A stretch of 64,000 bases of DNA from Muribaculaceae bacterium Isolate-036 (Harlan) (GCA_003833075.1 RIAY01000007.1:1-64000), one strand, 5' to 3'; shown: positions 12,489 through 52,487, counted from the first letter of the stretch. Translations and numbers: made by a program. The notes: generated from the sequence alone by a model not told the origin.

Positions 12489-12801
12489 AATCGCTCAAAT
12501 TCTGAGAAGATGGGCTGAAAAGTTAGAGCCTATCTTTCCATACGATGTGAAGCATATCCCATATCTAAAAGAAGAGAGGCACGATATCCAGAAAATGATG
12601 TCGCAGCACTCAATACCCAGATATGTATATGATCGAGATCCAAACCGCATGAATAGGCTGGTTCGTGAAGATATTGCTTCTGGGATAGCCAAGGGATTAG
12701 ATGCTAATGGCCTCATTAAGATAACGATTGAGCCTACTCCAGAAAATGTGAATTACATCGGAGAACTATATATTATTGACTTTCATAAGGATTCAATATA
12801 A
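12472..12801 (+). CDS. hypothetical protein (109 aa)
   Basis: ORF. Confidence 0.4.
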   Translation: MKLKTKIAQILRRWAEKLEPIFPYDVKHIPYLKEERHDIQKMMSQHSIPRYVYDRDPNRMNRLVREDIASGIAKGLDANGLIKITIEPTPENVNYIGELYIIDFHKDSI

Positions 12802-12850
12802 TCAAAATCTCAATGCCTTGGGCGGCTTAATAAAACCCACAAGAAACAAT

Positions 12851-13309
12851 ATGGAGATAATCAAAATCGAAAAATTCCCATCAATCGAAGGCGTGGCTAA
12901 AGACTTCGCCAAAAGAGCAGTTGAAGGCTGTAAGGGCAGTCTTGATTTAGAAAAGTGCGAAAAGCAGATCGCATTTGCTGTTGACTATGGTCACGAAAAT
13001 GCTTGGCAGCTGCTTGACACTATGGACTTCGGCGATGCAATCAGAGCACTCAAAGCCGGTGCTAAAGTGGCCCGTAAGGGCTGGAACGGTAAGGGGATGT
13101 TCCTCTGGCTCAAACCAGCAGCCACCGTCAAATCCGAATGGTGTAAAGATCCTATGCTGAAAAAGCTGGCCGATGACAATGGCGGCACTATCGAGGCTGC
13201 TGGCACTATCTGCATGTTCACTGCCCAGCACCAGATACTCACCGGCTGGCTTGCTTCCCAGACTGATGTGCTTGCTGAGGACTGGGTAATCGTTTCAGAA
13301 GCTGAATGA
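12851..13309 (+). CDS. DUF2829-like protein (phage-associated family), ~152 aa
   Basis: Motif KVARKGWNGKGMFLWL, which I recall as typical of the DUF2829 family. Confidence 0.45.
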   Translation: MEIIKIEKFPSIEGVAKDFAKRAVEGCKGSLDLEKCEKQIAFAVDYGHENAWQLLDTMDFGDAIRALKAGAKVARKGWNGKGMFLWLKPAATVKSEWCKDPMLKKLADDNGGTIEAAGTICMFTAQHQILTGWLASQTDVLAEDWVIVSEAE

Positions 13310-15228: not shown

Positions 15229-15241
15229 GTGGTGCCACCAG
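15229..15241. repeat. 13-bp direct repeat GTGGTGCCACCAG, identical to the 3' end of tRNA-Phe at 30891-30903. Candidate att core and junction between blocks A and B.
   Basis: Exact 13/13 match seen in the sequence. Confidence 0.55.
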
Positions 15242-15361
15242 CACCTGAGTTTCTGAATGAATACGAATGAATTTGAATGGCTTGTTTAGGCAAAATACTG
15301 AATAATAGTGCAATATGAACTTTGATGAATTTTGGGAATTTTCAGATTTATTCAAAAAACG

Positions 15362-15383
15362 TGGTGACCTGCGTGGTGACCCG
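15362..15383 (+). promoter_or_regulatory. two direct GTGGTGACC repeats (candidate integrase arm-type sites) upstream of the integrase
   Basis: CGTGGTGACCTGCGTGGTGACCC. The same 8-mer recurs four times at the other element end (30579-30834). Confidence 0.4.
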
Positions 15384-15485
15384 ACTTGACAAAATGCGGT
15401 TTGGGTTGTTATATTTGCAGAACCAAAGTGGCTGATTGTGAATAACTGTGAACGCCACCACTCAGAAATTTATAACATCGAAGAT

Positions 15486-16949
15486 ATGACAAAAACACCC
15501 TCTCCGAAAAAATTGACCCCGTTTCATGTCCGAACCAAGGATTTGAAGAAGGATACCGCGACTCTCTTTATCCGTATCCATACCCGCAAGGTTGATGTGC
15601 TGATTTCGACCATGCTTCAGGTTGAGGTTGCCGACTGGCAGAAGGCTACGACATCACCCCGCGCATGGCTGGCGCATCAGAAGAAGAATTATCAGCTTCA
15701 TGCCAAGCTCACGCAGATTGAGGGCATAGTCAAGGCCCATCTCGCAAAGGTGAACTTTGACCGCGAGGCTCTCGACATGGATGTGCGCTATATCTCAGAG
15801 CCGGAGAAAGTGGACGCTGAACGTCGGGCGATGGAGGAAGCCGCCGAGGCTGAGCGTAAGGCTATCGCCAAACGTGAGGCGGCGAAAGAAAAAGCCCGCA
15901 AGAAAGCCGAGGAAAAGAAACGTATCGAGGATGAGAAGAACCGCCTTATCTGGCCGTTCCTCGTTCAGTTTGTCGATGACATCAAGAGCGGGGCGCGCAA
16001 GATTGGCAGTGACGACTATGCACCCGGCACATGCAAGGCATGGAAAAGTTTTATTGGTGTCTATGAAGGCTTCGACACATTGCACAAGTTCGGATGGGCA
16101 GACATCGACCGTGCGTTTGTGTCACGCTACATCAACTACTTACAGAAGCACGGCTACATGGCGAAGGTGGTCAACAAGCATCTGACAAACCTGAAGGCTC
16201 TTATCAATGCCGCATTCGTTGACGGCGTACATGATAATCAGAGAGCTGCCGCGCTCATTGTCAAGAAGAAGATTGAAGACCGCGACAAGGCTGTCGAGAT
16301 TTATCTCACCGAGGAGGAGTTGCAGGCTCTCTATGAAATGCCTCTGACCGGGAAGAAAGAACACATCCGCGATGTTTTTCTCATTGGCTGCTACACCTGT
16401 CAGCGTGTAAGCGATTACAACAACCTCAATGTTGACAATTTTGAGACCACCCGCAAGGGGACGCGCATCATCCGTCTTGTGCAGCAGAAGACCAAGACCG
16501 AGGTAACAATCCCCATTCTCAACGAGAACCTTATCACCATCTGCGAGAAGTACGGCTACAATATTCCGAAAGCCAACGAGCAGGTGCTGAACCGCTACAT
16601 CAAGGATATTCTCAAAGACCTGTCGGAGCAGTTGCCGTCACTGAAAGAGAAAGTGCCGACCAAGCTCACCATGAAGCAGAAGGAGGCGTTGAGAAAAGAG
16701 AAGAAGGAACCGGAGACCGACCTCAACGGCAACGTGATTGTGCCGCGCTATGAGTGTGTGACAAGCCACACCGCCCGACGCACCGGCATCACGAATATGT
16801 ACCTCAGCCACAGGTACACCATCTTCCAGATGATGCACGTCAGCGGTCATAAGACCCAAAAGACCTTCATGGACTACATCAAGCTATCCTCCGAGGAGAT
16901 AGCCGACGAAATTGCCGCCATGTCCAAGAAAGAGAATGATATGTGGTAA
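15486..16949 (+). CDS. tyrosine recombinase/integrase of element B (the ORF track starts at GTG 15438; ATG 15486 is more likely)
   Basis: C-terminal HTARRT...HVSGH...Y catalytic motif order. A TAtaTTTG -7-like motif sits at ~15411. Confidence 0.75.
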   Translation: MTKTPSPKKLTPFHVRTKDLKKDTATLFIRIHTRKVDVLISTMLQVEVADWQKATTSPRAWLAHQKKNYQLHAKLTQIEGIVKAHLAKVNFDREALDMDVRYISEPEKVDAERRAMEEAAEAERKAIAKREAAKEKARKKAEEKKRIEDEKNRLIWPFLVQFVDDIKSGARKIGSDDYAPGTCKAWKSFIGVYEGFDTLHKFGWADIDRAFVSRYINYLQKHGYMAKVVNKHLTNLKALINAAFVDGVHDNQRAAALIVKKKIEDRDKAVEIYLTEEELQALYEMPLTGKKEHIRDVFLIGCYTCQRVSDYNNLNVDNFETTRKGTRIIRLVQQKTKTEVTIPILNENLITICEKYGYNIPKANEQVLNRYIKDILKDLSEQLPSLKEKVPTKLTMKQKEALRKEKKEPETDLNGNVIVPRYECVTSHTARRTGITNMYLSHRYTIFQMMHVSGHKTQKTFMDYIKLSSEEIADEIAAMSKKENDMW

Positions 16950-17078
16950 ACCCTTGGCTCAACTCCTCTCAAGTGGCAAAATAGCCGCTTTCTGGGGTGG
17001 TGAGCCTTTAATCCTCTCACTAAAAGCGGATAATTCAGCATAATTTTGTATCTTTGCAAAAAAATAATTGCGCAATAA

Positions 17079-17873
17079 ATGAACAATCTATATACTAAAG
17101 ATACGCTCAAGCACTATCTCCATAATCCTCTTGGAATATTGGGGATGTTTATTACCCTCTGTTATCTAATTGCGGGCATTGTCTTTTCAATAGGATTAGG
17201 TCAGCTGCAAGGAGATTCTGAAAGATTGCCATTCATATATTTCATTATAGGTTTCCCCTTAGTTATTTTGATCGCGTTTTTATTTTTGGTTATATGTCAC
17301 CACGAAAAGCTTTATAGCCCACAAGATTTTTCAGATGAAGCAAATTTTGTAAAATTAACCGGTAAAGAGAGCACTGAAAAACTTAGGAAGGAGGCAGTAG
17401 AAATAATTTCCCATGGGAACAATGTCCTCAGAGAAACAAAAAATGTTACAGAAAAAGTCCATGCATTGATGCCAATAGTAGAAAATGTAGAGAAATTAGC
17501 CGTAAAAAAAATAGAGAGTATCTATGGCATTCAATTTCAAAGGGAAGTTCAGTATGTTTTAAACCGCCATCGATATATATTTGATGCTTTTGCACAAAAG
17601 GATGAGATTTTTTATATTTTTGAATGCAAATATGTAAGAAATGCCATCTCTCGTGAAAGGTTGAGGAGTGTGTTAGAGCAAATGTTACGATATAAACAGA
17701 TGTTCAAAGATCAAGGTATTGCAACTAAATTTATTGTTGCATTTGTATTAGATGAATTTACCGAAAACCGTCAGCACGAAATTATGGATTTTTATTCATC
17801 AGTTGCACCTGAAATGACAGTATATGTATTTGATTTCAACAAATTAAAGGTAGAATTCTCTACAAAATCCTGA
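17079..17873 (+). CDS. membrane protein (2 TM) with a C-terminal PD-(D/E)xK nuclease-like motif
   Basis: TM helices near the N-terminus. C-terminal FDAF...IFYIFECKY (D-x15-ExK). A TAtcTTTG promoter motif sits at ~17051. Confidence 0.5.
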   Translation: MNNLYTKDTLKHYLHNPLGILGMFITLCYLIAGIVFSIGLGQLQGDSERLPFIYFIIGFPLVILIAFLFLVICHHEKLYSPQDFSDEANFVKLTGKESTEKLRKEAVEIISHGNNVLRETKNVTEKVHALMPIVENVEKLAVKKIESIYGIQFQREVQYVLNRHRYIFDAFAQKDEIFYIFECKYVRNAISRERLRSVLEQMLRYKQMFKDQGIATKFIVAFVLDEFTENRQHEIMDFYSSVAPEMTVYVFDFNKLKVEFSTKS

Positions 17874-17875
17874 AA

Positions 17876-19558
17876 ATGCCCAGATATACAATAGAACAAC
17901 TTCAACATATGCGTGAGTCGGAAGACCACGTTGAGTTCAAAAAAGGGGAACACGGAAACGTATCCTATAACGGTGCGGGTAAAGACAAACCACAGGAGCG
18001 TCGCCGGTGTATCCTCGGATATGTCGCTGCTCTCTGTAACGAGGGTGGCGGTCGTATCGTCATAGGTATGCACGATGCCTATCCTCATAAGGTTATCGGC
18101 ACAAAACAGTGTCTTAACGGTATCGGGCAACTTGAGAGTGACATATATCGGGATATGGGCATACGCCCCGACATCTACGAATTGTATGAGGACGAGGAAG
18201 CAAAATCCGGGCGAGTGCTTGTAATCGAGGTTCCTCCGCATCCGATTGGCAAGGTATTCAAATTCGAGGACGTAGCACTTATGCGTGTGGGAGAGGAATT
18301 GAAGCCAATGGATGACAAGACTTTCATCTCCATCATTCAGGAGCAGGAGCCTGATTTCTCGGAGCACATCTGCGAAGGTATCACCATTGATGACCTGGAC
18401 AAAGAGGCAATCAAAGTGATGAAGGAAAGATACGCTGAAAAGCAGAAGAATCCAACATTTACATCATTGTCCGATGCACAGGCATTAAGCGACCTTAGGC
18501 TGATAATTGGAGATAAGGTTACGAATGCCGCGCTACTGCTGGTCGGCAAGGAAGAAGTGATTGAGCGTTTCTATCCTCAGGCAAAAGTAATGCTTGAATA
18601 TCGCAATACAGAAAGCCAGATACACTTTGACAACAGAAAATCTTTCGGTCAGCCGTTCTTCCTTCTGATTGACGAGCTTTGGGAGGAAATAAATCGACGT
18701 AACGGTTCCGTGCCGGTAAGAAAAGGTCCGTACATATTCGACATTCCTTTCTTCAACGAGGACGTTATACGAGAGATTGTTAATAACGCTTTTTCTCATA
18801 GAGATTATAGATTTGGCAGTGAGATTGTAATCAAGCAATATCCTCTAAAATTCACAATCATCAATGGTGGCGGTTTTCCTCATGGCGTGTCAGTCGATAA
18901 TCTTCTGACTACTCCGAGTATGCCACGAAACAGGCTCATCGCTGATGTTCTGTCCAAGACCGGTATCGTAGAACGCTCCGGCCAAGGAGTTGACAAGATA
19001 TTTCTATACACGCTTTCAGAAGGGAAGCCTGCTCCGGATTACTCAAAGACTGACGAGTTCAATGTTACAGCGACATTATCAGCCACTGTGAAGGATACCG
19101 GATTCGCCCTTTATGTGCAGGATATTCAGGATGGACTGCCGGATGACAAGAAACTTACGGTGTTTGAGGTGCTTGCTCTATGTGAAATACGGGATGGAGC
19201 AAAACGACCATCTGACAAGGAGATAGCCTTAAAGCTTGAAAAACTTGGATTCATAGAGAAGCATGGCAAGACCAACGCACAATACTACATTCTACCCCGC
19301 AAATATTATGAACTGAGTGGTGATTTGGCAGCCTATTCGTTAAAGACCGATTGGGACATCAATCAGGTATGGGCTGTACTTCATCCTTTTATGGTCAAAT
19401 ATGGCAAGGCAAAGCGGGCTGATATAAATACCCTTATTGGAACCCATTTGTCGGAAAAGCAACTTCGTAATTTTATTGAGGAGTTGAAACAGCAGGGAAA
19501 ATTGAGAGCAGAAGGAGGAAGAGGGTATGTAGTGTATTATCTTGGAGAGAACGCTTAA
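17876..19558 (+). CDS. AlbA_2 (Schlafen-like) DNA-binding domain plus HATPase_c_4 (RecG C-terminal-like) putative regulator (560 aa)
   Basis: N-terminal Y..E..E.E.VEFK...H motif typical of the divergent-AAA/AlbA_2 family. Starts 3 nt after the upstream stop. Confidence 0.55.
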   Translation: MPRYTIEQLQHMRESEDHVEFKKGEHGNVSYNGAGKDKPQERRRCILGYVAALCNEGGGRIVIGMHDAYPHKVIGTKQCLNGIGQLESDIYRDMGIRPDIYELYEDEEAKSGRVLVIEVPPHPIGKVFKFEDVALMRVGEELKPMDDKTFISIIQEQEPDFSEHICEGITIDDLDKEAIKVMKERYAEKQKNPTFTSLSDAQALSDLRLIIGDKVTNAALLLVGKEEVIERFYPQAKVMLEYRNTESQIHFDNRKSFGQPFFLLIDELWEEINRRNGSVPVRKGPYIFDIPFFNEDVIREIVNNAFSHRDYRFGSEIVIKQYPLKFTIINGGGFPHGVSVDNLLTTPSMPRNRLIADVLSKTGIVERSGQGVDKIFLYTLSEGKPAPDYSKTDEFNVTATLSATVKDTGFALYVQDIQDGLPDDKKLTVFEVLALCEIRDGAKRPSDKEIALKLEKLGFIEKHGKTNAQYYILPRKYYELSGDLAAYSLKTDWDINQVWAVLHPFMVKYGKAKRADINTLIGTHLSEKQLRNFIEELKQQGKLRAEGGRGYVVYYLGENA

Positions 19559-19769
19559 AGGGCGAACTAAAGGGCGAACTTTTACGCCTTATAAGCCATT
19601 TCAACTTGAAATCATCCTCTTATCATGTTGATAATTAGAACTAAACATTAACCGTCAAAGGGCGAACTAAAGGGCAAAAGGATTATAAGCATATTTTAGG
19701 AGACAAAGGGTACTCAGAAAGGAAAAGAAGGGAGCCAGAACGCAATAACGGGAACCATGCCCGGAATAA

Positions 19770-19802
19770 TTTGGAAAGTCTGATAAGGTGGTATTATCTT
19801 TG
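19770..19802 (+). promoter_or_regulatory. Bacteroides sigma-A-type promoter candidate (TTTG, 21 nt spacer, TAtcTTTG)
   Basis: Motifs seen at ~19770 and ~19795. Confidence 0.4.
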
Positions 19803-19888
19803 CCAGAGAATTGTGAGGCGACCATTGCTATATCGGTTATATATACTGAGATACATGTACAACCTTGTGCTATATCCGGCGGAAAATA

Positions 19889-19921
19889 TTTGGCGGGATT
19901 GAAAATTACACTTTATCTTTG
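19889..19921 (+). promoter_or_regulatory. second Bacteroides-type promoter candidate (TTTG, 21 nt spacer, TAtcTTTG)
   Basis: Motifs seen at ~19889 and ~19914. It points rightward into the GC-rich noncoding region. Confidence 0.4.
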
Positions 19922-20039
19922 CCGCTGTAAGGATGAAAAGAAAGTCCGGAACCAGGAGTAGGGGCTAATGCCCGGTCATGCACTACTTTTGGCTATGGAT
20001 GATATTTTTCGCTGAATCGTGAACTTTTTTGGACAAAGC

Positions 20040-21110
20040 TTTGTTAGGAAAGTTGCGGTGGCAAATCTCGCGACCATAGCGGAGCGTCAGATTGCTCTGC
20101 CGTGACGGTTGCGCCCTTATACACCGCAGACACAACCCGCAGCCCAAGAGTGGGCTGACTCCCTATGAGCCGACCCCGAAGGGTCGGATCCGATGCACAA
20201 CACTCGGAGGTGTGTGCCTGAATTTCGCAGCCGGATGCGCAATATCTTGCGAACAAATCGGTGTGCGGGTACTTACCCGAATCTTACACCGACACCGGTG
20301 CCCATATTCAGGCGTGACACTTGTGGACGCTATCGGCACACACCTACATCATACACACCCGATAGCCGACAATGTCAACCGCCGACGGGAGATTGTGCCG
20401 ATTTGGTAATCTCGGAAAATTTTGTTATCTTTATGTAACGATTGAAGGCAGCGCACGCCCGAAGCGACACGTTCAGCTTTATAGACAGGAACAGGAACGA
20501 TGCTCCCCGACGGATGCCATGCCCGATATTGACACTGTAACAATAATAACGAGGTACCTGATCAGAAGACCGGACTCAGAATCCGGAACCACTATGAAAA
20601 GCCTGCTGTTGAATGCGGAACGAACCGCAACGGTTTAACCCGATATCAACTCGCACTAAGGAAGCGATGCTCAACGGATTAAATGCGTGGAACAACGGCA
20701 GAAGAAGAAAGAACGGCACAGCCATAAACTGTCATAGAGCCTATACGAGCTGAATTTTGCGACAGCCATAACTGTGCCCGTACAGAATCTGTACGTCAAA
20801 AACAATCAATTAAAAAGAAGAAGAAATGCGTATGCCTTACCTTATTGCAAAGTAAGACACAACCGCCTTTGTATCTGCCCCGTATAAGGAACAGATGCCC
20901 TCATGTCGTTGCCTTTCGGCGCGATATGGAAAAGGGTGAACCACGCCCTTTGCCGACCCTGACAGGACGGCAGCAACAACCGTCGGCTTTAGCGAAACAT
21001 AGCCGACAGCCCTTCCTATGTCCTTTCGGGGACACGTCACCGCAGCCTCTTTCGTCGCCGGGGCTGTGGGTGATGCAAGTTACTTGGCGATATAACTTTA
21101 ATTTCATAAT
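20040..21110 (+). ncRNA. candidate long structured RNA or structured leader (GC-rich, noncoding) upstream of the xis-like/primase/mob genes
   Basis: About 1.1 kb without any ORF longer than 105 aa. It is visibly GC-rich, roughly 50-60% by eye against ~40% in the flanks. It has many short GC hairpins (for example CGACCCcgaaGGGTCG, CCGGActcagaaTCCGG, GACGGcagcaacaaCCGTC) and two upstream promoters. Confidence 0.3.
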
Positions 21111-21118
21111 CCCCCCAG

Positions 21119-21448
21119 ATGAAATTGAATCTTTTTGACCTTCTTCAGGCGTCGGCACTCGACCCTGACTCCCCCGATATTATCCTCAACGTCCGCCTCT
21201 CTGACCTCCATCAGCTTGTGGTGGACACAATCGAAGCCACCCGCGAGCGTCTGCTCCCCCTCTACATGGAGGCCGAGTCGGACAGGTCAATCACCAAGAA
21301 AGAGGTTGCCGAGCGGCTCGGCGTCTGCGAGACCACGGTCTACAACATGACCAAGGACGGCAGACTCCACCCTTTCAAGGTGAACGGCAGTACCCGCTAC
21401 AGCCTGCGGGAAGTCAACTCCATTATCAACCCCTCTAACGATGACTGA
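21119..21448 (+). CDS. excisionase/AlpA-like helix-turn-helix DNA-binding protein (109 aa)
   Basis: KKEVAERLGVCETTVYNMTKDGRL HTH. 8-nt overlap with the next gene. Confidence 0.6.
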   Translation: MKLNLFDLLQASALDPDSPDIILNVRLSDLHQLVVDTIEATRERLLPLYMEAESDRSITKKEVAERLGVCETTVYNMTKDGRLHPFKVNGSTRYSLREVNSIINPSNDD

Positions 21449-22670
21449 GCTTATGGAAGACGTAATAGTTACACCTCCCGCCGACGACCGCTTCGAGCGC
21501 ATCGGTACCACTTACTACAAGATTGTCCGCCAGCCCAACGCTGCCGGACAGCTCATCGAGCGCAGCATACCGTGGACTATCGAGGCAATCCGTCAGGACT
21601 ACGGCAAGGACTTCCTTGCCAACGTGCCCAAGTACGACGGCTTCTGCTGTGTTCCCTCGCATCTGGACTATAAGCCGGTTGTCGGCAGTTTCAAGAACAA
21701 GTATTCGCCGTTGAGCCATATTCCCGCCGATGGAGAATGGCCATGCATCGAATCGCTTGTGCGCCATATCTTCGGCGAACAGTACGACCTCGGTCTCGAC
21801 TACCTGCAAATACTTTACACCATACCGTTGCAGAAACTTCCGATACTGCTGCTGGTGTCGGAGGAACGGAACACCGGCAAATCCACCTTCCTCAATTTCC
21901 TCAAACTGCTCTTTGAGGCTAATGTCACGTTCAACACCAACGAGAACTTCCGCAGCCAGTTTAACGATGATTGGAACGGCAAGCTGGTAATCGTAGTGGA
22001 CGAGGTGTTGCTCAACAAGCGAGAGGATTCCGAGCGTCTGAAAAACCTCAGCACCACCTACAACTACAAGATGGAGGCCAAAGGACGCGACCGCGAGGAG
22101 GTGAGTTTCTTCGCCAAGTTCGTACTATGCTCCAACAACGAGTATCTCCCCGTGGTCATCGACCCCGGCGAGACCCGCTACTGGGTGCGGAAGGTTCCGA
22201 GGCTTACCACGGACGATACCACGTTTCTGGAGAAAATCCGCTACGAGATACCGGCATTTCTCCATGCCCTGACCTATCGGCAGCTGATAACCGCCGAGGA
22301 AAGCCGCATGTGGTTCAATCCCGCGCTGCTCGACACCGAGGCATTGCAGAAAATCATCCGCGCCAACCGCAACCGTGTGGAGCTGGAGCTTGCCGAGCTG
22401 CTGACCGAGATAATGGACTCGCGCAAAATCGACGAGGTGGATTTCTGCTTCAACGACATCCTGAGTCTATTCGGCTACCGTCAAGTCAAGGCTGACCGTA
22501 GCCAGCTCCGGAAGGTGGTGCAGGACTGCTGGAAGCTCAGACCTGCCTCCAACTCGTTCTGCTACACGACCTACACCGTCGGGATGTTCCTCAACGAAGA
22601 AACATACGTTGAGACCCGCCGTTGCGGACGATACTACACCGTCACCCGTCAGATGTTGGAAAATTTATAA
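21441..22670 (+). CDS. primase/D5-P4-type NTPase-like replication protein (PrmN1-like), 409 aa
   Basis: Walker A ERNTGKST, Walker B LVIVVDEV. The NBU gene order is int, xis-like, prm, mob. Confidence 0.55.
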   Translation: MTELMEDVIVTPPADDRFERIGTTYYKIVRQPNAAGQLIERSIPWTIEAIRQDYGKDFLANVPKYDGFCCVPSHLDYKPVVGSFKNKYSPLSHIPADGEWPCIESLVRHIFGEQYDLGLDYLQILYTIPLQKLPILLLVSEERNTGKSTFLNFLKLLFEANVTFNTNENFRSQFNDDWNGKLVIVVDEVLLNKREDSERLKNLSTTYNYKMEAKGRDREEVSFFAKFVLCSNNEYLPVVIDPGETRYWVRKVPRLTTDDTTFLEKIRYEIPAFLHALTYRQLITAEESRMWFNPALLDTEALQKIIRANRNRVELELAELLTEIMDSRKIDEVDFCFNDILSLFGYRQVKADRSQLRKVVQDCWKLRPASNSFCYTTYTVGMFLNEETYVETRRCGRYYTVTRQMLENL

Positions 22671-22979
22671 TTTTTTCTCGTTGAAATTTGATGAACTGAT
22701 GAAAGGAGAGACAGTCTATTGTTTTTCAGTGCCTTTTCTTCTCATCGGTTATTCATCAACGCTTCATCAAAGGATGAAAGGCAATGAAAAGAAAATATAG
22801 TGGCACTGAGAGAAAACCTCAATTTTCTTTTCCCTCGCCGAAATTTTCTTCTCACCGCCCATATAATAACGATGAAACAATGATGAACAGATAACGCACT
22901 GATATGATTAAATATACCTGTCCGATTCATCAGTTTATCAAATTCAACACCTCACCCGGTCGCCGAGACTTTTATCTCG

Positions 22980-23906
22980 GTGTCCACAATTCACAATGAT
23001 ATGGCAAAATCAACCAAATCCACCAAAGCATCAGGTTTTGATGCGGATAAATACCTTGAGGAACTGGAAGAGGAGTCCCGAAAGGAAAAAGAAGCTGCAA
23101 AGAAAAAGGAAGCTCGCATTATGGAATATTCAATTCCATGGAACATGACAGATAGAGAGCCTCCGCTCCCGGAAATGAAGTTGAACGCATGGCGTTTCAG
23201 ATGGGAGCCCGAGAATCTGGAAGAGTTCATACCGAAATATGGCGAAGATTGCAAGAGGATAATTGCGGAAATCAACGCCGAAAAGAAAAGACGACTCGAC
23301 ACGATTCCGGACGTAAGGCGACCGGGCTACTCGGTGACAGGGAATAAGCTCGATACTGATGAGCCAGCCAATCAACCGGATGCACAGGCAAGCAGTCAAC
23401 CGGAACATCAGTCAACCAAGACAACGGAGACCGAGATACCGGACGATGCGGTGCAACCGCAACCTCAGTCTACCGGTACACCGGTTACACCGTCCGCAGC
23501 TTCCGAGCCGGAGGTGAAAGATGTATTGCCTCCGTCATCGCCGATCACCGATGCTCCCGACGTTCAGAACTCCGACACGGACACAGCTTCTGTTCCGCCA
23601 CAAGCTGAGTCGCGGCCAAACTCCGCCACCGTGGAACAATTGAAAAAGTCCCGCGTCAGTGCCAGGAAGGTCGATGCCGATTTCGAGGAATTGTCCCGAA
23701 GGTATCTCCACGTCGTCAGTCTCGGCGAGAAGAAACCGGTGTTCCTCCCTCTCGAACTCCGCAACGCTTTGGATACTCTCGCCCGGTTGAGTGGTGTACC
23801 GAATCTGGCACCGTCTCACATTGTCATCAACATTCTTAAAGCGTTCTTTGACGATAACCGCGAACTTATCAACTGCAAACTCTCACGTGAGAAATTAAGA
23901 ATCTGA
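22980..23906 (+). CDS. DUF3408-like mobile-element protein with a low-complexity P/S/T/Q-rich linker (308 aa)
   Basis: Conserved-looking C-terminal region and a long low-complexity middle. Lies upstream of the mob genes. Confidence 0.4.
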   Translation: MSTIHNDMAKSTKSTKASGFDADKYLEELEEESRKEKEAAKKKEARIMEYSIPWNMTDREPPLPEMKLNAWRFRWEPENLEEFIPKYGEDCKRIIAEINAEKKRRLDTIPDVRRPGYSVTGNKLDTDEPANQPDAQASSQPEHQSTKTTETEIPDDAVQPQPQSTGTPVTPSAASEPEVKDVLPPSSPITDAPDVQNSDTDTASVPPQAESRPNSATVEQLKKSRVSARKVDADFEELSRRYLHVVSLGEKKPVFLPLELRNALDTLARLSGVPNLAPSHIVINILKAFFDDNRELINCKLSREKLRI

Positions 23907-24105
23907 AATCTACGTGATTCAGGGCGCGGCGGTATCCATCCGCAGGGCTAATGGAGGGGCTAAGCGAGGTTAGATTTTTGTGATACAAAAATCGTCGCAA
24001 CCATGTTGCTCCCCTCGCCACCCTCCATTACACCGGGTGGACCGGTACACCGGTGTAACGAATCCGCTTTGCCCCTCCATTTTCAAACCCTTAATCCCCC
24101 CACGC
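23905..24105. promoter_or_regulatory. candidate oriT region: long inverted repeat TAATGGAGGGG...CCCCTCGCCACCCTCCATTA plus inner IR ACACCGG...CCGGTGT
   Basis: Seen in the sequence immediately upstream of the MobC-like and relaxase genes. Confidence 0.35.
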
Positions 24106-24107
24106 CA

Positions 24108-24491
24108 ATGAAACCGAAATCCCCGACCCGCAAATCGAATCTCAGGGCAGGACACCGCAACGGTCGTCCATCCCTGCCCGAAGAGGAGCGTCAGTCCTAC
24201 GTCCGGCACACGCGATACAACGAGGCTGAAAACACCCTCCTGCTTGCCAATGTCAAGCGCACGGGAATGAAAAATGTCAGCGAATATATACGATCGGTGA
24301 CGCTCAATCCTCACATTGTTCCACGACTCGATGAATCAGAAATGAGAATCGCCCGCAATCTCTCCGGCATGAGCAACAATTTCAACCAGCTCCTTCGCCT
24401 CTGCCATCAGCGCGGACTCGATGCCATGGCCCGCGATGTGCAATACTGCCTCAGCCAATTCCGCGGACTTTTCGCAAAATTAAGTTCCTAA
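24108..24491 (+). CDS. MobC-like mobilization (relaxosome accessory) protein. The ORF track start at 24003 is probably noncoding oriT.
   Basis: R.S...EE......R.T..E...L...AK..G...S.Y.R pattern of Bacteroides MobA/MobC-type proteins. 7-nt gap to the relaxase. Confidence 0.55.
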   Translation: MKPKSPTRKSNLRAGHRNGRPSLPEEERQSYVRHTRYNEAENTLLLANVKRTGMKNVSEYIRSVTLNPHIVPRLDESEMRIARNLSGMSNNFNQLLRLCHQRGLDAMARDVQYCLSQFRGLFAKLSS

Positions 24492-24497
24492 TTTCCT

Positions 24498-25967
24498 ATG
24501 ATAGCATATATAATAAGCGGCTCAGGCTTTGGCGGATGTGTCGATTATGTCACCCGCCGCAAGCTCGAAGAGAAGCTCTATAAGGAGCAGTCGAAAGGTC
24601 TGAAAGCCGATGAAAGAAAATATGAACCCGCGAAGCGGCTCGCGAGTGGGCTTGAAGCGCATGTCAGCGGAGCTGGTGCGCGGTGGCAAAGCCATCAAGA
24701 CCCACCGCAGCGCAACAAAGGAGAGGATATAATCGACCATCTTTCCAAAGACTGGAAACTCCTGTCTTCCTCCGGCGACATAAGGATATATGAAGGCCGC
24801 AAGGCTATGGCTGACGACATCGCCCGACCGTCACGACAACGTAAGCCTATAAAAGACCCGGTCGGTCATATATCACTCGACTTTCATCCAGACGATGCTC
24901 CGAAGATGACGGACGAACTTATGACCGAGGTGGCGCAGGAATATATGAGGCAGATGGGGCTGACCAATACCCCGTACATAGTGGTACGACATTTTGACAA
25001 GGCGCATCCGCACTGTCATATAGTTTTCAGCCGGGTTGATTATGACGGCAAGATTCTGACTCAGACCACCAACTTCAAGAAGAATGAGCGCGTCTGCAAG
25101 GCTCTCAATCTGAAACACCGTCTTACGCAGGGAAAGAGCAAACTTAATACAGATGTTTCAAAACTGCGGGGAAAAGATAAAATCCGTTACCCACTTGTCC
25201 ACAATATAGCCGGAGTGTACATCCGTCCGGAGATTCAGGACTGGAACTCGTTTCTCATTGCTCTTAAGCAACAGGGTATAAGGGTCAAGGAAAAGACCGG
25301 CCAATCAGGGAAAACGAATCTGTATTACTGCACAGGCAGACATGAATTCTGGTATAAGAAACTCGATTCCTTTTTCAGCCGCGAGAATCTTGAATTGAAA
25401 TTCAAGGCTCGTCGAGAGAAACAGCAAGCGGCAAAGACTCAACCCGGAACCGCACCACAGCCTAAACCGCAACGGCAGTCACAGCCTAAATCAAAGCAGC
25501 CGGAGCCTATTGTTATCCCGCCATTGTCGGATATCGTATGCGGCGTAAGGATTGACCGACTAAAGCAGCAAGCCTATCAGGAAGGCAAGTTCATCAGCAT
25601 CGGAATCTGTGACCCCGGAGGCGTTGTGCCAATCAATCATTGGATTTGGTACGATTTCGACAAACGAGAACCCGTAATGAGCCGTACATATCCCTACGAC
25701 CACAAAATCCCCGAAGCCTTCCAGCGACAGTTGGCGTCTAAGCAATCTCCCGCATCATCATCGCAGGGCACCGGAATCCGATTCTCATCGCCTTCTCTCG
25801 GTGGAAACATTCCTGAAGAACAAGGTTTCGCTCACGACAGAGGAATGCCGGACGACTTCAAGCACTTCCTTGAATTGCACCCCGGCATGAGCTTTGAGGA
25901 AGCCAAACGCCGCTTTAAGGACGAGCAAAAAGCCAAGCAACAACGCAAAGGTCCTAAACTGCACTAA
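24498..25967 (+). CDS. relaxase (MobA/VirD2-family mobilization nuclease) with a Pro/Gln-rich linker, 489 aa
   Basis: HISLDFHPDD...AHPHCHIVFSRVD histidine triad region. Confidence 0.7.
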   Translation: MIAYIISGSGFGGCVDYVTRRKLEEKLYKEQSKGLKADERKYEPAKRLASGLEAHVSGAGARWQSHQDPPQRNKGEDIIDHLSKDWKLLSSSGDIRIYEGRKAMADDIARPSRQRKPIKDPVGHISLDFHPDDAPKMTDELMTEVAQEYMRQMGLTNTPYIVVRHFDKAHPHCHIVFSRVDYDGKILTQTTNFKKNERVCKALNLKHRLTQGKSKLNTDVSKLRGKDKIRYPLVHNIAGVYIRPEIQDWNSFLIALKQQGIRVKEKTGQSGKTNLYYCTGRHEFWYKKLDSFFSRENLELKFKARREKQQAAKTQPGTAPQPKPQRQSQPKSKQPEPIVIPPLSDIVCGVRIDRLKQQAYQEGKFISIGICDPGGVVPINHWIWYDFDKREPVMSRTYPYDHKIPEAFQRQLASKQSPASSSQGTGIRFSSPSLGGNIPEEQGFAHDRGMPDDFKHFLELHPGMSFEEAKRRFKDEQKAKQQRKGPKLH

Positions 25968-25969
25968 TC

Positions 25970-26026
25970 AAAAATCCACCGAGAGAAGATCGTTTCTTTC
26001 GGTGGATTAACTTTGTTTTTTTGTGT
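25970..26026 (+). terminator. terminator-like hairpin (TCCACCGAG...TCGGTGGA) followed by a T-run
   Basis: Seen after the relaxase stop. Confidence 0.4.
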
Positions 26027-26210
26027 AATAGTTCGACGAAATAATTTCGTTCTTAGCTCATAAAGTCTGTCCAATATCTATTTTTCTTTGCCTACAAGCC
26101 ATTGCATACTCATATTCAAAGCCATTGCTTTGATACTATTTGGTGCCTCTGATTAAATTAGTTAAAATTATCAATGACAAATGCCTGTCCAATATTTGAT
26201 GTCTGATTAT

Positions 26211-26852
26211 TTATAATTTAGACGAATTTTTGCTCTCCCTTTTTTCTTTGTTTCGTAGGTATCTAGTAGCCAACTCATGATATGATGAGTCTGATTTACT
26301 TAAAAATAATTTGCGTGTGTCGCTGTCGATATCATATTCATCAATTATATCGAAAGTGTTTTGGAGCATTTTAATCTTGACATTGACTCGATCTATTCGT
26401 GACGATATAACCCCCTGCCTTGAAGCCATATCTTCAATTACTGAAAAATCGAGCACTATTTCTTTAAATAGTTTAAGTGCTTCAGGGAGATTTGTCAGAG
26501 ACAGTTGTCTTTGACATTTTTGTATCAGGCTATGGACGAAAACAAGCATTTCTGAAAGTTTTTGCCCTTCAGATGTTTGTGGGAGTTTATCCCTACGCAA
26601 ATCCCTAATCTTATACCAAGTTTTTTTATCACGGATATCATTAGCCACGGCTTCCCCCTCATTGTCTACGCTGGTTACATGCCAGGCACAACAAAATGAG
26701 CAGTAGTAGCTTCTGGACGGGACTTTCCCAGACAAAGAGGCTATTTCATCTCGATTGAACTTGATGAAATTATCTGCCTTTGCTTGAGTTTCAAAGAGCA
26801 TCTTTGGATGTCTGCATCCAATGCAGTATACACGGTTCTTCGTTGGCTTCAT
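26211..26852 (-). CDS. N-terminal Cys4-type zinc-finger protein of unknown function (213 aa)
   Basis: CIGC...(27)...CSFCCAWH. ATGA overlap with the upstream glycosylase-fusion gene. Confidence 0.45.
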   Translation of the reverse strand: MKPTKNRVYCIGCRHPKMLFETQAKADNFIKFNRDEIASLSGKVPSRSYYCSFCCAWHVTSVDNEGEAVANDIRDKKTWYKIRDLRRDKLPQTSEGQKLSEMLVFVHSLIQKCQRQLSLTNLPEALKLFKEIVLDFSVIEDMASRQGVISSRIDRVNVKIKMLQNTFDIIDEYDIDSDTRKLFLSKSDSSYHELATRYLRNKEKRESKNSSKL

Positions 26853-27640
26853 TGTTTTAGAATCGTTTCCCAGCGGTCTATTTTAGCGTCTAGCGTAAAA
26901 TGGGTGTTTGTTGAACTGGAACTTGGGAGAGAAACGACACGTATATGTTTCGGTAGTTCATCTATATTTATATATGTTCTAAAATAAGTTGAAGCTTTGT
27001 CTCCGTTTAGACCGATGACACGAATATTTGGATGCTTTGAAATAAACCCTAATATATCATTGATAGTTAAGTTTTTGATGTCTGAATCGAGACTACTGAT
27101 TCTTTCTGCTGATTTGAGCACATCCCACAATGCGATATGGTGTTTCTCCAAAAATCGTAGCCTGTCTTCGTAAGCGAGTGGTATACTTTCGTCAAACAGA
27201 CTTGACATGATTTTCCAGAATTGATTACCCTGATTCGCATAGTAACATTGTGTCTCCAATGATACTTTGCCCGGCAATGTCCCTAAGATCAGAAATTCCG
27301 ATTCTGAATCGGCGATGGGCGCAAGACCCTCTGTGACAACGCTGGATGTCAGGACTTTTGTCATGATGACTTCTGTCTCTGACGTATGTGCCGGGGTGGA
27401 AAGCGATGTTTTTTTACAATTTGAATGTCGGATATACCATGATTGTTTTTTACCGCCGGGTTGCTCTGCATTAGGAATTTTGCCATCTCGCAGGTGTCTG
27501 CGTAAAGTTTTTCCTCCGTCGGAAGGCAAAGCCCCGTTTTTAGCTAAATAGGCGGCGACTTCACTGGGCCCCACATGATTTAATCTGTTTGATTCGAGGT
27601 ATTCATCAATCAGATATATGATTCTGTTTATGTCTGCCAT
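26849..27640 (-). CDS. fusion protein: unknown N-terminal domain (~110 aa) plus UDG-superfamily DNA glycosylase domain (Mug/TDG or deoxyinosine-glycosylase-like)
   Basis: C-terminal LILGTLPGKVSL...YYANQGNQFWKIM...ALWDV...SLDSDI...IGLNGDKA matches the GxxPG / YxNxxNxFW motifs of UDG families. Confidence 0.5.
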   Translation of the reverse strand: MADINRIIYLIDEYLESNRLNHVGPSEVAAYLAKNGALPSDGGKTLRRHLRDGKIPNAEQPGGKKQSWYIRHSNCKKTSLSTPAHTSETEVIMTKVLTSSVVTEGLAPIADSESEFLILGTLPGKVSLETQCYYANQGNQFWKIMSSLFDESIPLAYEDRLRFLEKHHIALWDVLKSAERISSLDSDIKNLTINDILGFISKHPNIRVIGLNGDKASTYFRTYINIDELPKHIRVVSLPSSSSTNTHFTLDAKIDRWETILKQ

Positions 27641-27681
27641 AGCTGAAATATTTGTTTTACGGTATTATCATTTTTATGGGG

Positions 27682-28791
27682 TTATTTAAAAATTCGGTCT
27701 TTATAAGGCGTAGATTCAACGCCATTTACTTGAAGTTTACGAACAAGTCCGTCAAGTAGAGCAAGACAGATTCTCTTAAAGATTGCAGTGTTGCCAACCC
27801 ATTTTACAAGGGTCGGACTAACAGCATAGTAGGTGCGTATGAAAGCGCGCCCATACCAAGTTTCGGCGAGTGTGTAATCGCGGAATCTGCGTAGTGTCCA
27901 AACTTCGGGACAATCGTAAGAGCCATATACCGCTGTTGCAACATAGCACGGTCCGGAAGATGGATTTGATATATGCTCCTCATTAAACGTGTCAAGATTT
28001 CCGCTTGGAAGACCCTGCTTGATTCTATTAAGTATAGCGCGAAATTCCGTAACGGATTCTTCGTTAAGATTCGATTTAAATACGTTAAAACGAGCGTTAA
28101 CAGCTTGCGTGAAATTAATCCAGTTTTTTGCCGCAAATCCTACAAGGCAAGAAAGTTCCTCATGTGCGACTTTATCATCCGGGATCACATAGCGTAAACT
28201 CAGCAACAATTCATATTGGCTCATTATAAAAGCAAATATTTCATCTGAATCGGCTGTAAGTTCTGATGCTTTAAATGGATTCGATATACAATTCAGTTCA
28301 TATATCTGCTTTAAAGCCCCTGTGTTTTGTAATTGCTCGGTAAACGACTGAAGGTTTACGTTGAGAACTGTTATATAGAAGCCGTATACGTCTATTTCCA
28401 ATTCTCCATTGGATTTTTCGATAGCCTTTTTTCCGGCAGATATTATCTCTGTGACTCTAAGGTTGTCAATACTTGAGGATAATCCGATGGCTTTCATCTT
28501 AATAAACCATGCCTGGGCATTGTCGCAGTCAATTTCAAGAATACGTTTAACATATGACTCCGCTTCATCAACATTTAAACTGTCAATGGCATTCTGAGCA
28601 AGAGACAACAAGTTTGGAACTTTGTCCGATTGATCAATCTTGACTTTCCCTTCAATGTTGACAACTCCTTCGACCATCATTTTCTTGGCTTCTTCAACGG
28701 AGTATTTGGTTCCGCATGACTGACATACGAATACACCATCTTGTTTAAGGATATTTGTGCTTCCGCACATTTCACAGGTAAGTGGTTTCAT
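27682..28791 (-). CDS. zinc-ribbon protein with a helical middle and a conserved Cys-containing C-terminal module (YdjG-like partner of SPFH), 369 aa
   Basis: N-terminal CEMCG...CQSCG. C-terminal CYVATAVYGSYDCPEVWTLRRFRD. 4-nt overlap with the membrane gene. Confidence 0.5.
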   Translation of the reverse strand: MKPLTCEMCGSTNILKQDGVFVCQSCGTKYSVEEAKKMMVEGVVNIEGKVKIDQSDKVPNLLSLAQNAIDSLNVDEAESYVKRILEIDCDNAQAWFIKMKAIGLSSSIDNLRVTEIISAGKKAIEKSNGELEIDVYGFYITVLNVNLQSFTEQLQNTGALKQIYELNCISNPFKASELTADSDEIFAFIMSQYELLLSLRYVIPDDKVAHEELSCLVGFAAKNWINFTQAVNARFNVFKSNLNEESVTEFRAILNRIKQGLPSGNLDTFNEEHISNPSSGPCYVATAVYGSYDCPEVWTLRRFRDYTLAETWYGRAFIRTYYAVSPTLVKWVGNTAIFKRICLALLDGLVRKLQVNGVESTPYKDRIFK

Positions 28792-29165
28792 GAGGATTTA
28801 CAGTCTTGTGAGGGTTTATTTTTGACTTGATTTGCAGAACGTTTGGCAATGGCATAAATGAGACAGCCATTAAATGCCATTAGACAGAGGATAGCAATGA
28901 TTCCCCAATTGTCTTCTAACTGAGAAGGCATTAATAGTCCCATAATAAATTCTATTAAAGTAAATAACGGGATGATAAAAGCCAGAGATATTGTAAATGC
29001 AGATTTAAAAGACCCTTTGTTGACCCAGTAGGAAAACAAGGCTGCAACGCAGATTACAACTGTATTTATTCCCATATTGAACATGGGATAGCAGGATAAT
29101 ATCAATCCGGCTACGATATTTATCATCAGAAAGATGACATATAAGATTGGGAATATTTGTTTCAT
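28788..29165 (-). CDS. small polytopic membrane protein (YdjH-like), 125 aa
   Basis: Three to four hydrophobic helices. Lies 1 nt after the SPFH gene stop. Confidence 0.5.
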   Translation of the reverse strand: MKQIFPILYVIFLMINIVAGLILSCYPMFNMGINTVVICVAALFSYWVNKGSFKSAFTISLAFIIPLFTLIEFIMGLLMPSQLEDNWGIIAILCLMAFNGCLIYAIAKRSANQVKNKPSQDCKSS

Positions 29166-29166
29166 A

Positions 29167-30270
29167 TTATGGCAAAGGTGGTGGTGTAATAGAATTGATT
29201 AACGATGCTAATGTCGGAATCTGAGAGATAGGAAGCCAAGCAGACATTCCAATCGTCCACGCAAGCGTGGAACCATCGACAACACCACTTGAGATGTAAG
29301 CCGAAATACTCTCGGTCGTTAGATTGGGGACTTGTTGACCATCTATCAGCAAATAGTATGTCGGAGCGGACTGAGGGATGGGCGGCACATGAGGATTGGT
29401 GTTTAGATACTGGCCGGCAATATTACCGGCTGCATTACCCACGCCCATCCCAGCTCCGAGACCTACGCCTAACCCCATCATCTGACCTCCTGCGCCATCA
29501 TTGTTAGCAGCGGCTTCAAGGACGTTGAAACTACGTTCCATTTGGTATACATCGCGTCCGGTAATACGAAGACGCGCGGCAAGATCTTTGGCGTTTTTTA
29601 GCTTAATAACACTTTCGTCATCCTGAGGGAAAGTAATTGACATTATCGAAAATTCGATAATTGAAACTCCGTATTTCCCAAGCAGTTGATTGAGTTGCTC
29701 ATTAATGGAATCAGACATTGACAACAATAATGTATTGATGTCAAGAATTGATATGCCGTTGGTAACAATTTGCCTCGCGAGCAAAGAGTTTAGGGCGGAA
29801 ATGATTCTGCCCTTATAAAATTGTTCAATCTGTTCAGATGTAAACGCCCCCATGCTGCCGATAAGAGTTTCCAAGAAGATACGGGGATTAGTGACACGGA
29901 TACCATATTGACCATGAGCTCGAACAGGCACAATAATATGATACCGAGGATCTTCAATTTGAATTGGGTGCGGAGTGCCCCAGGGAAGATTGAGTTTTGC
30001 TGTTTGATTTATAAACCATACCTCGGCTTGGAACGGAGATTCCGAGCCAAAAGGCAAGTTTATAATCTTATTAAGTATCGGTATATTTTCAGTATCAATT
30101 CTATATGTTCCCGCAGTAAATTCATCACAGATGGCACCTCCTTTTACAAAGAAAGCTGTTTGAGCTGGGTGTACCACAAGCTGAGTACCCATACGCAGGT
30201 CATCGGAGTCGAACTTATGACAAAGTTCACCATCAACCGTTTGATATTTTACAACGTCTATTATTGCCAT
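29167..30270 (-). CDS. SPFH/Band-7 family protein (PF13421-like, YdjI-like) with a Gly-rich linker and a C-terminal GYF/DUF4339-like domain, 367 aa
   Basis: N-terminal MAIIDVVKY...FFVKGG signature of the SPFH-Band7_1 family. C-terminal YYLLIDGQQ...W module. Confidence 0.6.
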   Translation of the reverse strand: MAIIDVVKYQTVDGELCHKFDSDDLRMGTQLVVHPAQTAFFVKGGAICDEFTAGTYRIDTENIPILNKIINLPFGSESPFQAEVWFINQTAKLNLPWGTPHPIQIEDPRYHIIVPVRAHGQYGIRVTNPRIFLETLIGSMGAFTSEQIEQFYKGRIISALNSLLARQIVTNGISILDINTLLLSMSDSINEQLNQLLGKYGVSIIEFSIMSITFPQDDESVIKLKNAKDLAARLRITGRDVYQMERSFNVLEAAANNDGAGGQMMGLGVGLGAGMGVGNAAGNIAGQYLNTNPHVPPIPQSAPTYYLLIDGQQVPNLTTESISAYISSGVVDGSTLAWTIGMSAWLPISQIPTLASLINSITPPPLP

Positions 30271-30578
30271 ATACTCAACTTAAAACTGACCAAAAGCCCA
30301 CTTGGTCATAAATAAAAAAGAGGCGTGGGCTGCTATGCCACGCCTTTACGGATAGGTGGTAGGAATACCTGTATATGAAGATGTGGAAATAACAGCTCCA
30401 CGCCGTATGGCATGGAGACTGTCATGACTTTCTCTTGCATATACTTGGATGTAAGTTTCCTACGCTTTATCCGTACAAGCAGAAGACATAACGCCTCTTT
30501 GATTCAAAAATGTTTGGACAGACCACGGCCTATCCGACTGCAAAGTTACGAAAATATTTTGATATTTTAACCCTAAGG

Positions 30579-30834
30579 TGTGGTGACCCGGCGAGATTTT
30601 GGCTGAGGTCACCACATTTTTATTGCTGGAATATGGTTAAAGTCTGTTAATGTTTGGGGTCATCAGGCGGTGATGTGGGGATGAATGACGCTGAACGGAT
30701 TTGGTTGAATTTGAAATATATACTGATTATCAGCGCATTAAACCGCCATGATAAAAGATATGCGCCTATACAGACACGCATAATAAACAATATTTCAGTG
30801 TATTAGGATGGGCGTGGTGACTTTTGTGGTGACT
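30579..30834. promoter_or_regulatory. four GTGGTGAC(C/T) repeats (30579-30588 direct, 30607-30615 inverted, 30814-30822 and 30826-30834 direct). Candidate integrase arm-type sites at the tRNA-proximal end.
   Basis: The same 8-mer occurs twice next to the integrase at 15362-15383. Confidence 0.4.
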
Positions 30835-30856
30835 TGGAGGGGTATGATTGAATAAA

Positions 30857-30890
30857 AGACCGCTAACTCATTGAGAATTAGCGGTCTTTT
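30857..30890. terminator. hairpin AGACCGCTAA...TTAGCGGTCT flanked by A/T runs (bidirectional terminator 3' of tRNA-Phe)
   Basis: Seen in the sequence. Confidence 0.45.
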
Positions 30891-30891
30891 G

Positions 30892-30964
30892 TGGTGCCAC
30901 CAGGAATCGAACCGGGGACACAAGGATTTTCAGTCCTTTGCTCTACCAACTGAGCTATGGCACC
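30892..30964 (-). tRNA. tRNA-Phe (anticodon GAA), no encoded CCA
   Basis: Reverse complement GGTGCCATAGCTCAGTTGGTAGAGCAAAGGACTGAAAATCCTTGTGTCCCCGGTTCGATTCCTGGTGGCACCA shows a cloverleaf with a GAA anticodon loop. Confidence 0.85.
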
Positions 30965-52417: not shown

Positions 52418-52487
52418 GTCATTATTCGGTATAAAATAAGTAGGGTGTTCAGCCATATATTCTTACAAAACTGTAACCTAAACTATT

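Follow-up and report, generated by a model that had tools for sequence, protein, structure and literature searches.

We analysed a 64,000-nucleotide stretch of DNA from Muribaculaceae bacterium Isolate-036 (Harlan) (GCA_003833075.1 RIAY01000007.1:1-64000; hereafter the window) that carries a pair of minus-strand genes on a mobile element. The first gene (26849..27640) encodes a 263-residue protein, HDGf, in which a winged-helix domain is fused to a DNA glycosylase domain, and the second (26211..26852) encodes a 213-residue zinc-ribbon/helical protein, hereafter the partner. The two open reading frames (ORFs) lie as an original prediction from the sequence alone had described them, including the ATGA stop/start overlap that joins them, which reads 'caATGAagcc'. 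The pair is not a product of chance, because HDGf matches the NCBIfam model TIGR04274 with E=5.6e-46, full-length homologues of HDGf form about 65 clusters, and the partner has 170 homologues. HDGf is 98% identical to the NCBI entry 'DNA-deoxyinosine glycosylase [Muribaculum intestinale]'. The protein is best explained as a predicted monofunctional glycosylase of the family-6 type that is carried as cargo by mobile elements of gut Bacteroidales and is tethered through a linker to a winged-helix domain.

Domains of the fusion protein and its partner

The catalytic domain of HDGf comprises residues 100-263 (26852..27343, minus strand) and is supported by Foldseek matches and column conservation. 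Residues 105-257 match TIGR04274, an equivalog model for DNA-deoxyinosine glycosylase, across the whole model (positions 1-150) and with 156.4 bits where 80 would suffice; Pfam assigns HDGf to the generic UDG superfamily only. The original prediction left the enzyme type between Mug/TDG and deoxyinosine glycosylases. The deoxyinosine/hypoxanthine (family 6) assignment holds and the Mug/TDG one does not, because TIGR04274 exceeds its cut-off whereas two MUG/TDG models stay far below theirs: NF007570, for G/U-mismatch glycosylases, reaches 12.5 of the required 144 bits (E=0.091), and TIGR00584 reaches 14.4 of 402.6 bits (E=0.022). In an AlphaFold2 model built from an alignment of 40 sequences the catalytic domain has a predicted local distance difference test (pLDDT) value above 90. 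The best solved structure in a Foldseek search is 2L3F, a family-6 homologue from Methanosarcina acetivorans (TM score 0.84, E=1.7e-13, 34% identity), and MUG/TDG structures rank after it (TM scores 0.57-0.72).

The comparison of family members drew on 62 fusion proteins and 47 that stand alone, the canonical HDGs. Conservation of at least 90% in both groups is found at 34 columns, which include G120, P123, Y133, Y134, N139, W142, W172, D173, N212, G213 and S242. The GTLPG, YYANQGNQFW and LNG motifs named in the original prediction are all present in HDGf and all fall in columns that are invariant or at least 90% conserved across the fusion clade and the stand-alone HDGs. Changes specific to one group are mostly conservative, the exception being the motif-B loop, which reads LPS[ST]SxNTH in the fusions and LPSTSPAHA in the canonical HDGs. 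That these columns and motifs are common to both groups indicates that glycosylase chemistry is very probably retained in HDGf, and the sequence comparisons clearly point to a UDG family-6 hypoxanthine/deoxyinosine glycosylase domain. Family 6 is defined biochemically by the excision of hypoxanthine and the absence of uracil-DNA glycosylase activity (PMC5387724, PMC8438529). The substrate specificity of HDGf itself is not readable from sequence.

An extra N-terminal domain had been proposed at a size of about 110 residues. The domain is present but smaller, with a folded part of about 75 residues followed by a disordered linker of about 25. The folded part (residues 1-75; 27416..27640, minus strand) is a winged helix, with three helices and a β-hairpin wing, and the linker (residues 76-99; 27344..27415, minus strand) is variable, with pLDDT below 50 and no column conservation. 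The segment 'LRKLLREGKIPNA...W.I' aligns to the recognition helix and wing of Pfam HTH_17 (PF12728); the isolated N-domain scores below the gathering threshold of that family (20.8 bits against 27), and its fold is still that of a winged helix. A comparison of the N-domain with PDB sequences returned only an ankyrin-repeat-like local match, which we judged spurious.

A profile of the N-domain retrieved 335 clusters among 1.84 billion representative proteins. In the best 150 of these, the domain is N-terminal to a C-terminal extension in 80 and stands alone in 59, and there are 26 unrelated partner-domain clusters. We identified partner domains by scanning 87 longer matches with Pfam, NCBIfam and PADLOC. 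Glycosylases are represented by family-6 HDG in 18 matches (NCBIfam), the UDG superfamily in 21 (Pfam) and a MUG-type enzyme in 3. Nuclease domains comprise GIY_YIG_2 in 10, GIY-YIG in 1 and HNH models in up to 2, where the HNH_2 and HNH matches perhaps belong to one protein. DUF7255 is found in 7 (Pfam; the matching BLAST cluster has n=9), and a PT-DNA restriction endonuclease model, PADLOC mREase_IV, PDC-M57B and PDC-S14 were each matched once. One GIY-YIG/N-domain fusion adjoins a Type I restriction-modification (R-M) system. The biggest partner cluster (19 members, about 280 residues) has no annotation, no Pfam match and no PDB sequence match. In profile-profile comparison of an alignment of P0255 with 11 relatives (A5), the motifs 'IAEAPP', 'RFFYY' and 'PFPxxGxQ' align with UDG motifs A and B, and hhalign aligns the 'IAEAPP...RFFYY' partner end to end with HDGf, but the shared N-domain dominates that score. 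The biggest partner of the N-domain (19 clusters) is a tentative candidate for a distant, unrecognised UDG-like family.

The range of fusion partners suggests that the N-domain serves as an exchangeable handle for effectors that cleave DNA or excise bases. This agrees with the earlier proposal of an added sensing or targeting domain, in that the N-domain behaves as such a module and the winged helix is shared with nucleases. No relatives of the N-domain were found in 2.9 million viral contigs, and the BFVD viral structure models gave remote UDG-fold matches only. In three other proteins (P0082, P0107 and P0114) the HDG domain is joined to a different N-terminal domain of about 85 residues ('MKGK..FTE.E...QK.IR.KMRKIGFY..DF'), which suggests that family-6 glycosylases have gained N-terminal modules more than once.

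The partner opens with a zinc-ribbon domain (residues 1-75, CxxC...CxxC..H; 26628..26852, minus strand) defined by invariant columns (M18, L19, F20, K25, A26, D27, N28, F29, I30, N33, P45, R47, S48, Y49, C51, C54, H58, T60 and D75). These first 75 or so residues are near-invariant in a large Bacteroidales family, while the helical remainder diverges fast except for a C-terminal motif. The cysteine zinc finger proposed earlier is upheld for C51, C54 and H58, which are invariant, and for C10 and C13, which are nearly so, but not for C55, which is usually Gly in relatives. Close relatives are about 338 residues long and the window protein is C-terminally truncated, with the last 125 or so residues missing: it is 72% identical to P0122 over residues 1-210, diverges from about residue 205 and then meets a stop codon, so that it ends without the conserved C-terminal motif of its family. 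No Pfam, NCBIfam, PADLOC or PDB sequence family was found for the partner, and its PHROG matches are weak and to families of unknown function. Its profile yielded generic helical-bundle noise only when compared with PDB sequences. Distant zinc-ribbon relatives occur in unrelated contexts without any glycosylase, and the zinc-ribbon protein is thus not an obligate glycosylase partner. The coupling of the two genes holds for the subclade of fusions on conjugative and mobilisable integrative elements, described below, and not for the more divergent fusions.

Mobile elements and the shared cargo slot

The claim that the gene pair is mobile-element cargo is borne out by an integrative mobilisable element (IME) of about 15.7 kb (15229..30903). 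It is bounded by 13-bp direct repeats, GTGGTGCCACCAG, the first at 15229-15241 and the second at 30891-30903, where it forms the 3' end of a tRNA-Phe gene (30891-30964). The repeat has two copies in the window, and 0 of 100 shuffled sequences gave two. Between the repeats lie genes for a tyrosine integrase (15438-16949), MobA (24003-24491) and a MobB-type relaxase (24498-25967). The GC content of HDGf and its partner is 40%, against 49% for the chromosomal flank. A Bacteroides muris contig is 98% identical to the window DNA over 24714-30913 and 91-92% identical over most of 16187-24625. A B. muris isolate, M. intestinale (by its NCBI name) and other bins carry copies of HDGf that are 97-100% identical, and copies that are 98-100% identical occur in bins of mouse-gut metagenome-assembled genomes, whose taxonomic labels are perhaps mis-binned. 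These identities indicate that the element has spread horizontally among different Bacteroidales. A megablast search of the region for plasmids matched the tRNA only.

Synteny across 36 fusion-bearing loci and the window falls into three configurations. In the first, found in CTnDOT-like integrative and conjugative elements (ICEs), a conserved, strongly acidic ORF of 76-93 residues is followed by HDGf and then by the full 338-residue zinc-ribbon gene. WG-repeat and EEP nuclease genes usually lie upstream of this three-gene module and traQ to traM lie downstream in convergent orientation; in one variant (L090), Type I R-M/WYL genes adjoin the module instead. PDDEXK_13/REase-ARP, EEP nuclease and UvrD genes surround the module in the CTnDOT-like ICEs. 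In the second configuration, that of the window, the acidic ORF is absent and the zinc-ribbon gene is truncated, with SPFH-GYF, membrane protein and CFI-box genes upstream and the relaxase gene downstream. In the third, HDGf is solo in more divergent lineages at 45-57% identity, and in L086 eight codons of the zinc-ribbon gene remain. The persistence of solo HDGf at such identities suggests long-term selection on the fusion alone. In a further three loci (L107-L109) the zinc-ribbon gene is internally deleted, so that its N-domain is fused straight to the C-terminal motif region.

The acidic ORF stands directly upstream of HDGf at L001:7717-7998, L088:7762-7998 and L090:7768-7998, and directly upstream of an Mrr_cat gene at L123:9001-9237; the window has none. 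Its family comprises 86 clusters, all from Bacteroidales and none annotated, and the protein may act as a DNA mimic or as an inhibitor, unless its gene is part of the backbone. The most widespread acidic ORF is found in more than 800 contigs at the same ICE position, where it is ATGA-coupled to the gene for a 235-residue Mrr_cat protein with GmrSD_N, EEP and PDDEXK_13/REase-ARP genes upstream. Comparison of the two ICE types reveals a cassette swap. The Mrr_cat gene (L123:9234-9941) in one takes the place of HDGf and the zinc-ribbon gene (L088:8001-9805) in the other, between flanks that are 77-78% identical. DNA homology spans the acidic ORF, breaks off precisely at one border of the cassette and sets in again precisely at the other, at a lysozyme gene. 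At this single cargo hotspot, HDGf and its partner therefore take the place of a nuclease of the Type IV kind. The Mrr_cat protein of the common ICE slot is itself without the winged-helix N-domain.

An ordinary housekeeping enzyme might have been expected to show the same architecture in the core genomes of relatives, as the original prediction recognised. In 185,579 species-representative genomes, however, only 4 loci among the best 80 have the fusion, a lower bound set by a pattern-limited scan, and three of the four are near-identical copies; the architecture is thus not one that the core genomes of relatives share. Canonical HDGs are single-domain proteins of 159-205 residues, and the short HDGs of Flavobacterium have native GC content and, in 15 of 16 species, a collinear upstream flank of 10 kb. 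Set against the typical housekeeping form (a single domain of about 160-180 residues at a stable chromosomal site), HDGf has 263 residues, a winged helix and a location on an IME. As cargo of an IME and occupant of an ICE slot, it shares with defence glycosylases a place on mobile elements or in defence islands and not in the core genome.

Surroundings of the gene pair

HDGf and its partner are the final two genes of a tight, co-directional five-gene block that runs from 30270 down to 26211. The three upstream cargo genes (27682..30270, minus strand) encode an SPFH(Band_7_1)+GYF protein (29167-30270), a 125-residue membrane protein (28788-29165) and a zinc-ribbon/CFI-box-CTERM protein (27682-28791). 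Their ORFs overlap or abut, the trio accompanies HDGf at all window-type loci, and no PADLOC system was matched by it. A hairpin with a 16-bp stem (25973..26008), picked out by a terminator-like scan and inspection of the sequence, lies between the convergent relaxase and zinc-finger genes, where the cargo block ends, and is likely to act as a bidirectional terminator. A sigma-70 promoter scan gave background-level signal, and no Bacteroidetes -33/-7 promoter pattern was found upstream of the cargo block.

Apart from the cargo block, the IME also contains DUF5906 and DUF3408 genes and a Schlafen/AlbA_2 ATPase-like gene. The last encodes a 560-residue Schlafen/AlbA_2 + HATPase_c_4 protein (17876-19558) and is preceded by a 264-residue ORF (17079-17873) with a weak PHROG match to a family without assigned function. 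The B. muris contig mentioned above (isolate NM69_E16B, L007; 16,986 bp at 692x coverage) continues, at L007:1-260, past a 22-nt segment of the tRNA-Phe 3' end into sequence that is not in the window. This read-through of the tRNA, together with the very high coverage, suggests that the contig represents a related element, with an attP-like junction, in circular form after excision or in multiple copies.

A second mobile element, inserted in tandem, probably makes up the low-GC left 15 kb or so of the window. This region contains a radical-SAM gene (5800-6615) and a gene for a Tad2-like (Thoeris anti-defence 2) domain protein (12776-13309), which adjoins a second tyrosine integrase gene (13756-15018) to the left of the IME att site. 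In the chromosomal flank, giant minus-strand ORFs at 43861-50100 (2079 residues) and 52556-58810 (2084 residues) lie on either side of an M6 (immune inhibitor A) peptidase gene (50216-52456), and a further minus-strand ORF is at 60431-63976 (1181 residues). The 2079- and 1181-residue ORFs have no Pfam match.

Possible functions and relation to known systems

We tentatively favour the view that HDGf is a base-excision effector of defence or exclusion, directed against foreign DNA and tethered by its winged helix. The target would be incoming DNA of a phage or rival element and not DNA undergoing housekeeping repair. The winged helix would keep the enzyme on DNA, and the HDG domain would flip out and excise a hypoxanthine-like or other non-canonical purine, leaving abasic sites that would then block replication or be cut by host apurinic/apyrimidinic endonucleases, a course of events with parallels in Brig1, Brig2, Brig3 and the Dag enzymes. 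The zinc-ribbon protein and the acidic protein of the ICEs would be accessory (regulator, adaptor or inhibitor) and not essential for catalysis, since several lineages, that of the window among them, have truncated or lost them.

The argument for a defence role is drawn from context: an N-domain that elsewhere is joined to nucleases, carriage on mobile elements, restriction-type neighbours and the swap with Mrr_cat on ICEs, the contrast with chromosomal canonical HDGs, and the precedent of the Brig enzymes. Several observations count against it. The catalytic domain is near to housekeeping-type HDGs (40-48% identity, with an equivalog-level score), so that an unchanged hypoxanthine specificity, and hence repair, is entirely possible. 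The UDG-fold defence glycosylases Brig1 (PMC11078745), Brig2 (10.1101/2025.10.29.685425) and Brig3 of the Brig3-BapA operon (PMC13160076) differ in this respect, as Brig2-type UDG candidates are at most 20% identical to Brig1 and Brig3 is only weakly homologous to uracil DNA glycosylases. PADLOC v2.0.0, the models of which predate Brig and Dag, reported only PbeC, at a value that is not meaningful (E=0.0092). The slot shared with Mrr_cat demonstrates a cargo hotspot, not a function. For the other fusions of the N-domain the genomic context comes from one locus, and those with GIY-YIG or HNH domains could be homing endonucleases, not nucleases of defence. The module in the window is reduced, with the acidic ORF missing and the partner truncated, and this analysis identified no phage of Bacteroidales whose DNA carries a modified base resembling hypoxanthine.

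The main rival, which we consider somewhat less likely, is that HDGf serves element-borne repair, clearing hypoxanthine (deaminated adenine) from the DNA of the element or host by base excision. It would then be fitness cargo, protecting DNA in the nitrosative gut or during single-stranded conjugative transfer, with the winged helix merely raising DNA affinity. The equivalog-level match and the fact that every motif position is common to canonical HDGs fit this explanation, as does the one family member with characterised biochemistry, a glycosylase that acts in hypoxanthine repair (PMC5387724, PMC8438529). Moreover, HDGf stays intact and conserved in lineages that have lost both partner genes. 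Against this, the repair glycosylases of the family are single-domain proteins at a stable chromosomal site. The distribution of the fusion is sporadic and horizontally transferred. The added winged helix is otherwise joined to nucleases and Type IV-like domains, and the ICE slot alternates with an Mrr-type nuclease beside GmrSD_N and REase-ARP genes.

Two further explanations we consider improbable. Conjugative and mobilisable elements bring anti-defence cargo, and HDGf might strip deoxyinosine from element DNA when the immunity of a recipient makes dITP/ITP (deoxyinosine and inosine triphosphates) or deaminates adenine, thereby aiding establishment. Immunity based on inosine nucleotides is reported (10.1101/2024.12.20.629578); the neighbouring element carries the Tad2-like gene, and the acidic ORF of the ICEs is like DNA-mimic anti-restriction proteins, though only in its composition. 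Excision of densely incorporated deoxyinosine would, however, break up the DNA of the element itself, the position of the genes downstream of the relaxase probably puts them outside the leading region, library scans gave no sequence link to known anti-defence families, and the neighbouring cassettes are restriction-like and not anti-restriction-like. Equally improbable is that the window pair is a decaying, non-functional remnant of the three-gene ICE module on a young, fast-spreading IME: the acidic ORF and the last 125 or so residues of the zinc-ribbon protein, with its conserved C-terminal motif, are lost, other lineages are further eroded (eight codons in L086, the internal deletion in L107-L109) and the 97-100% identity of copies could mean recency and not selection, but the HDGf ORF is full length with all conserved catalytic columns intact, the truncated form represents clusters with more than 100 member sequences, and solo HDGf lineages persist at 45-57% identity.

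The base-excision effector that we favour could belong to a larger scheme, which we regard as speculative and rather unlikely in its entirety. The family-6 glycosylase would be the effector of a three-gene ICE 'base-excision restriction' system (acidic regulator, winged-helix-tethered glycosylase and zinc-ribbon/helical partner) that senses purine modification in phages or plasmids, and the winged-helix domain would define a wider immune family of interchangeable effectors (glycosylase, GIY-YIG, HNH and Type IV nuclease).

Base-excision defence is a very recent concept (Brig1-3 and Dag), and the UDG-fold enzymes known to provide it act on modified pyrimidines and are mostly those of soil bacteria or Proteobacteria. 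If HDGf is a defence effector, the concept would extend to a new UDG family and to a new host group, whose phages, including crAss-like viruses, have poorly known DNA modifications. It would also bring in a modular winged-helix 'handle' common to nucleases that could be used to find more effectors. If HDGf is instead repair cargo, mobile elements would bring their own hypoxanthine repair, which bears on mutation rates and on resistance to deaminase attack. In either case, HDGf is a family-6 glycosylase in a novel modular architecture borne by mobile elements; the literature that we searched contained no description of the fusion, the winged-helix module or the ICE slot.

HDGf has the motifs (GxxPG, YYAxxxNxFW, ALWDV, NG and LPSxS) and the fold of UDG family 6, as represented by the prototype Methanosarcina barkeri HDG, 2L3F and TIGR04274. 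It differs from that family in its N-terminal winged helix and linker, its LPS[ST]SxNTH motif-B loop in place of LPSTSPAHA, its site on a mobile element, its horizontal spread and its translational coupling to a zinc-ribbon protein. Brig1, Brig2 and Brig3-BapA resemble it as monofunctional UDG-fold glycosylases of defence islands or mobile elements, Brig3 likewise in a two-gene operon. The Brig enzymes have modified-pyrimidine targets and are distant from canonical UDGs, whereas HDGf is close to a purine (hypoxanthine) glycosylase and has a winged-helix domain; BapA is a β-barrel glucosyl hydrolase, to which the zinc ribbon and helical region of the HDGf partner are unrelated. Purine-directed base excision is found in Dag1, Dag2 and related helix-hairpin-helix defence glycosylases, which act against 7-deazaguanine phages and are carried on mobile elements or in AT-rich regions (10.1101/2025.10.29.685425), but these have a helix-hairpin-helix and not a UDG fold and are integron-borne in Vibrio and others. 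Type IV (modification-dependent) nucleases such as Mrr are linked to HDGf by the Mrr_cat gene that occupies the identical ICE slot behind the same acidic ORF, and one winged-helix N-domain fusion matches the PADLOC mREase_IV models. Mrr cleaves phosphodiester bonds, HDGf would remove bases, and the Mrr_cat protein of the slot does not have the winged-helix N-domain. The N-domain itself, with its three helices and β-hairpin wing, is built like excisionase/MerR-type HTH_17 and generic winged-helix domains.

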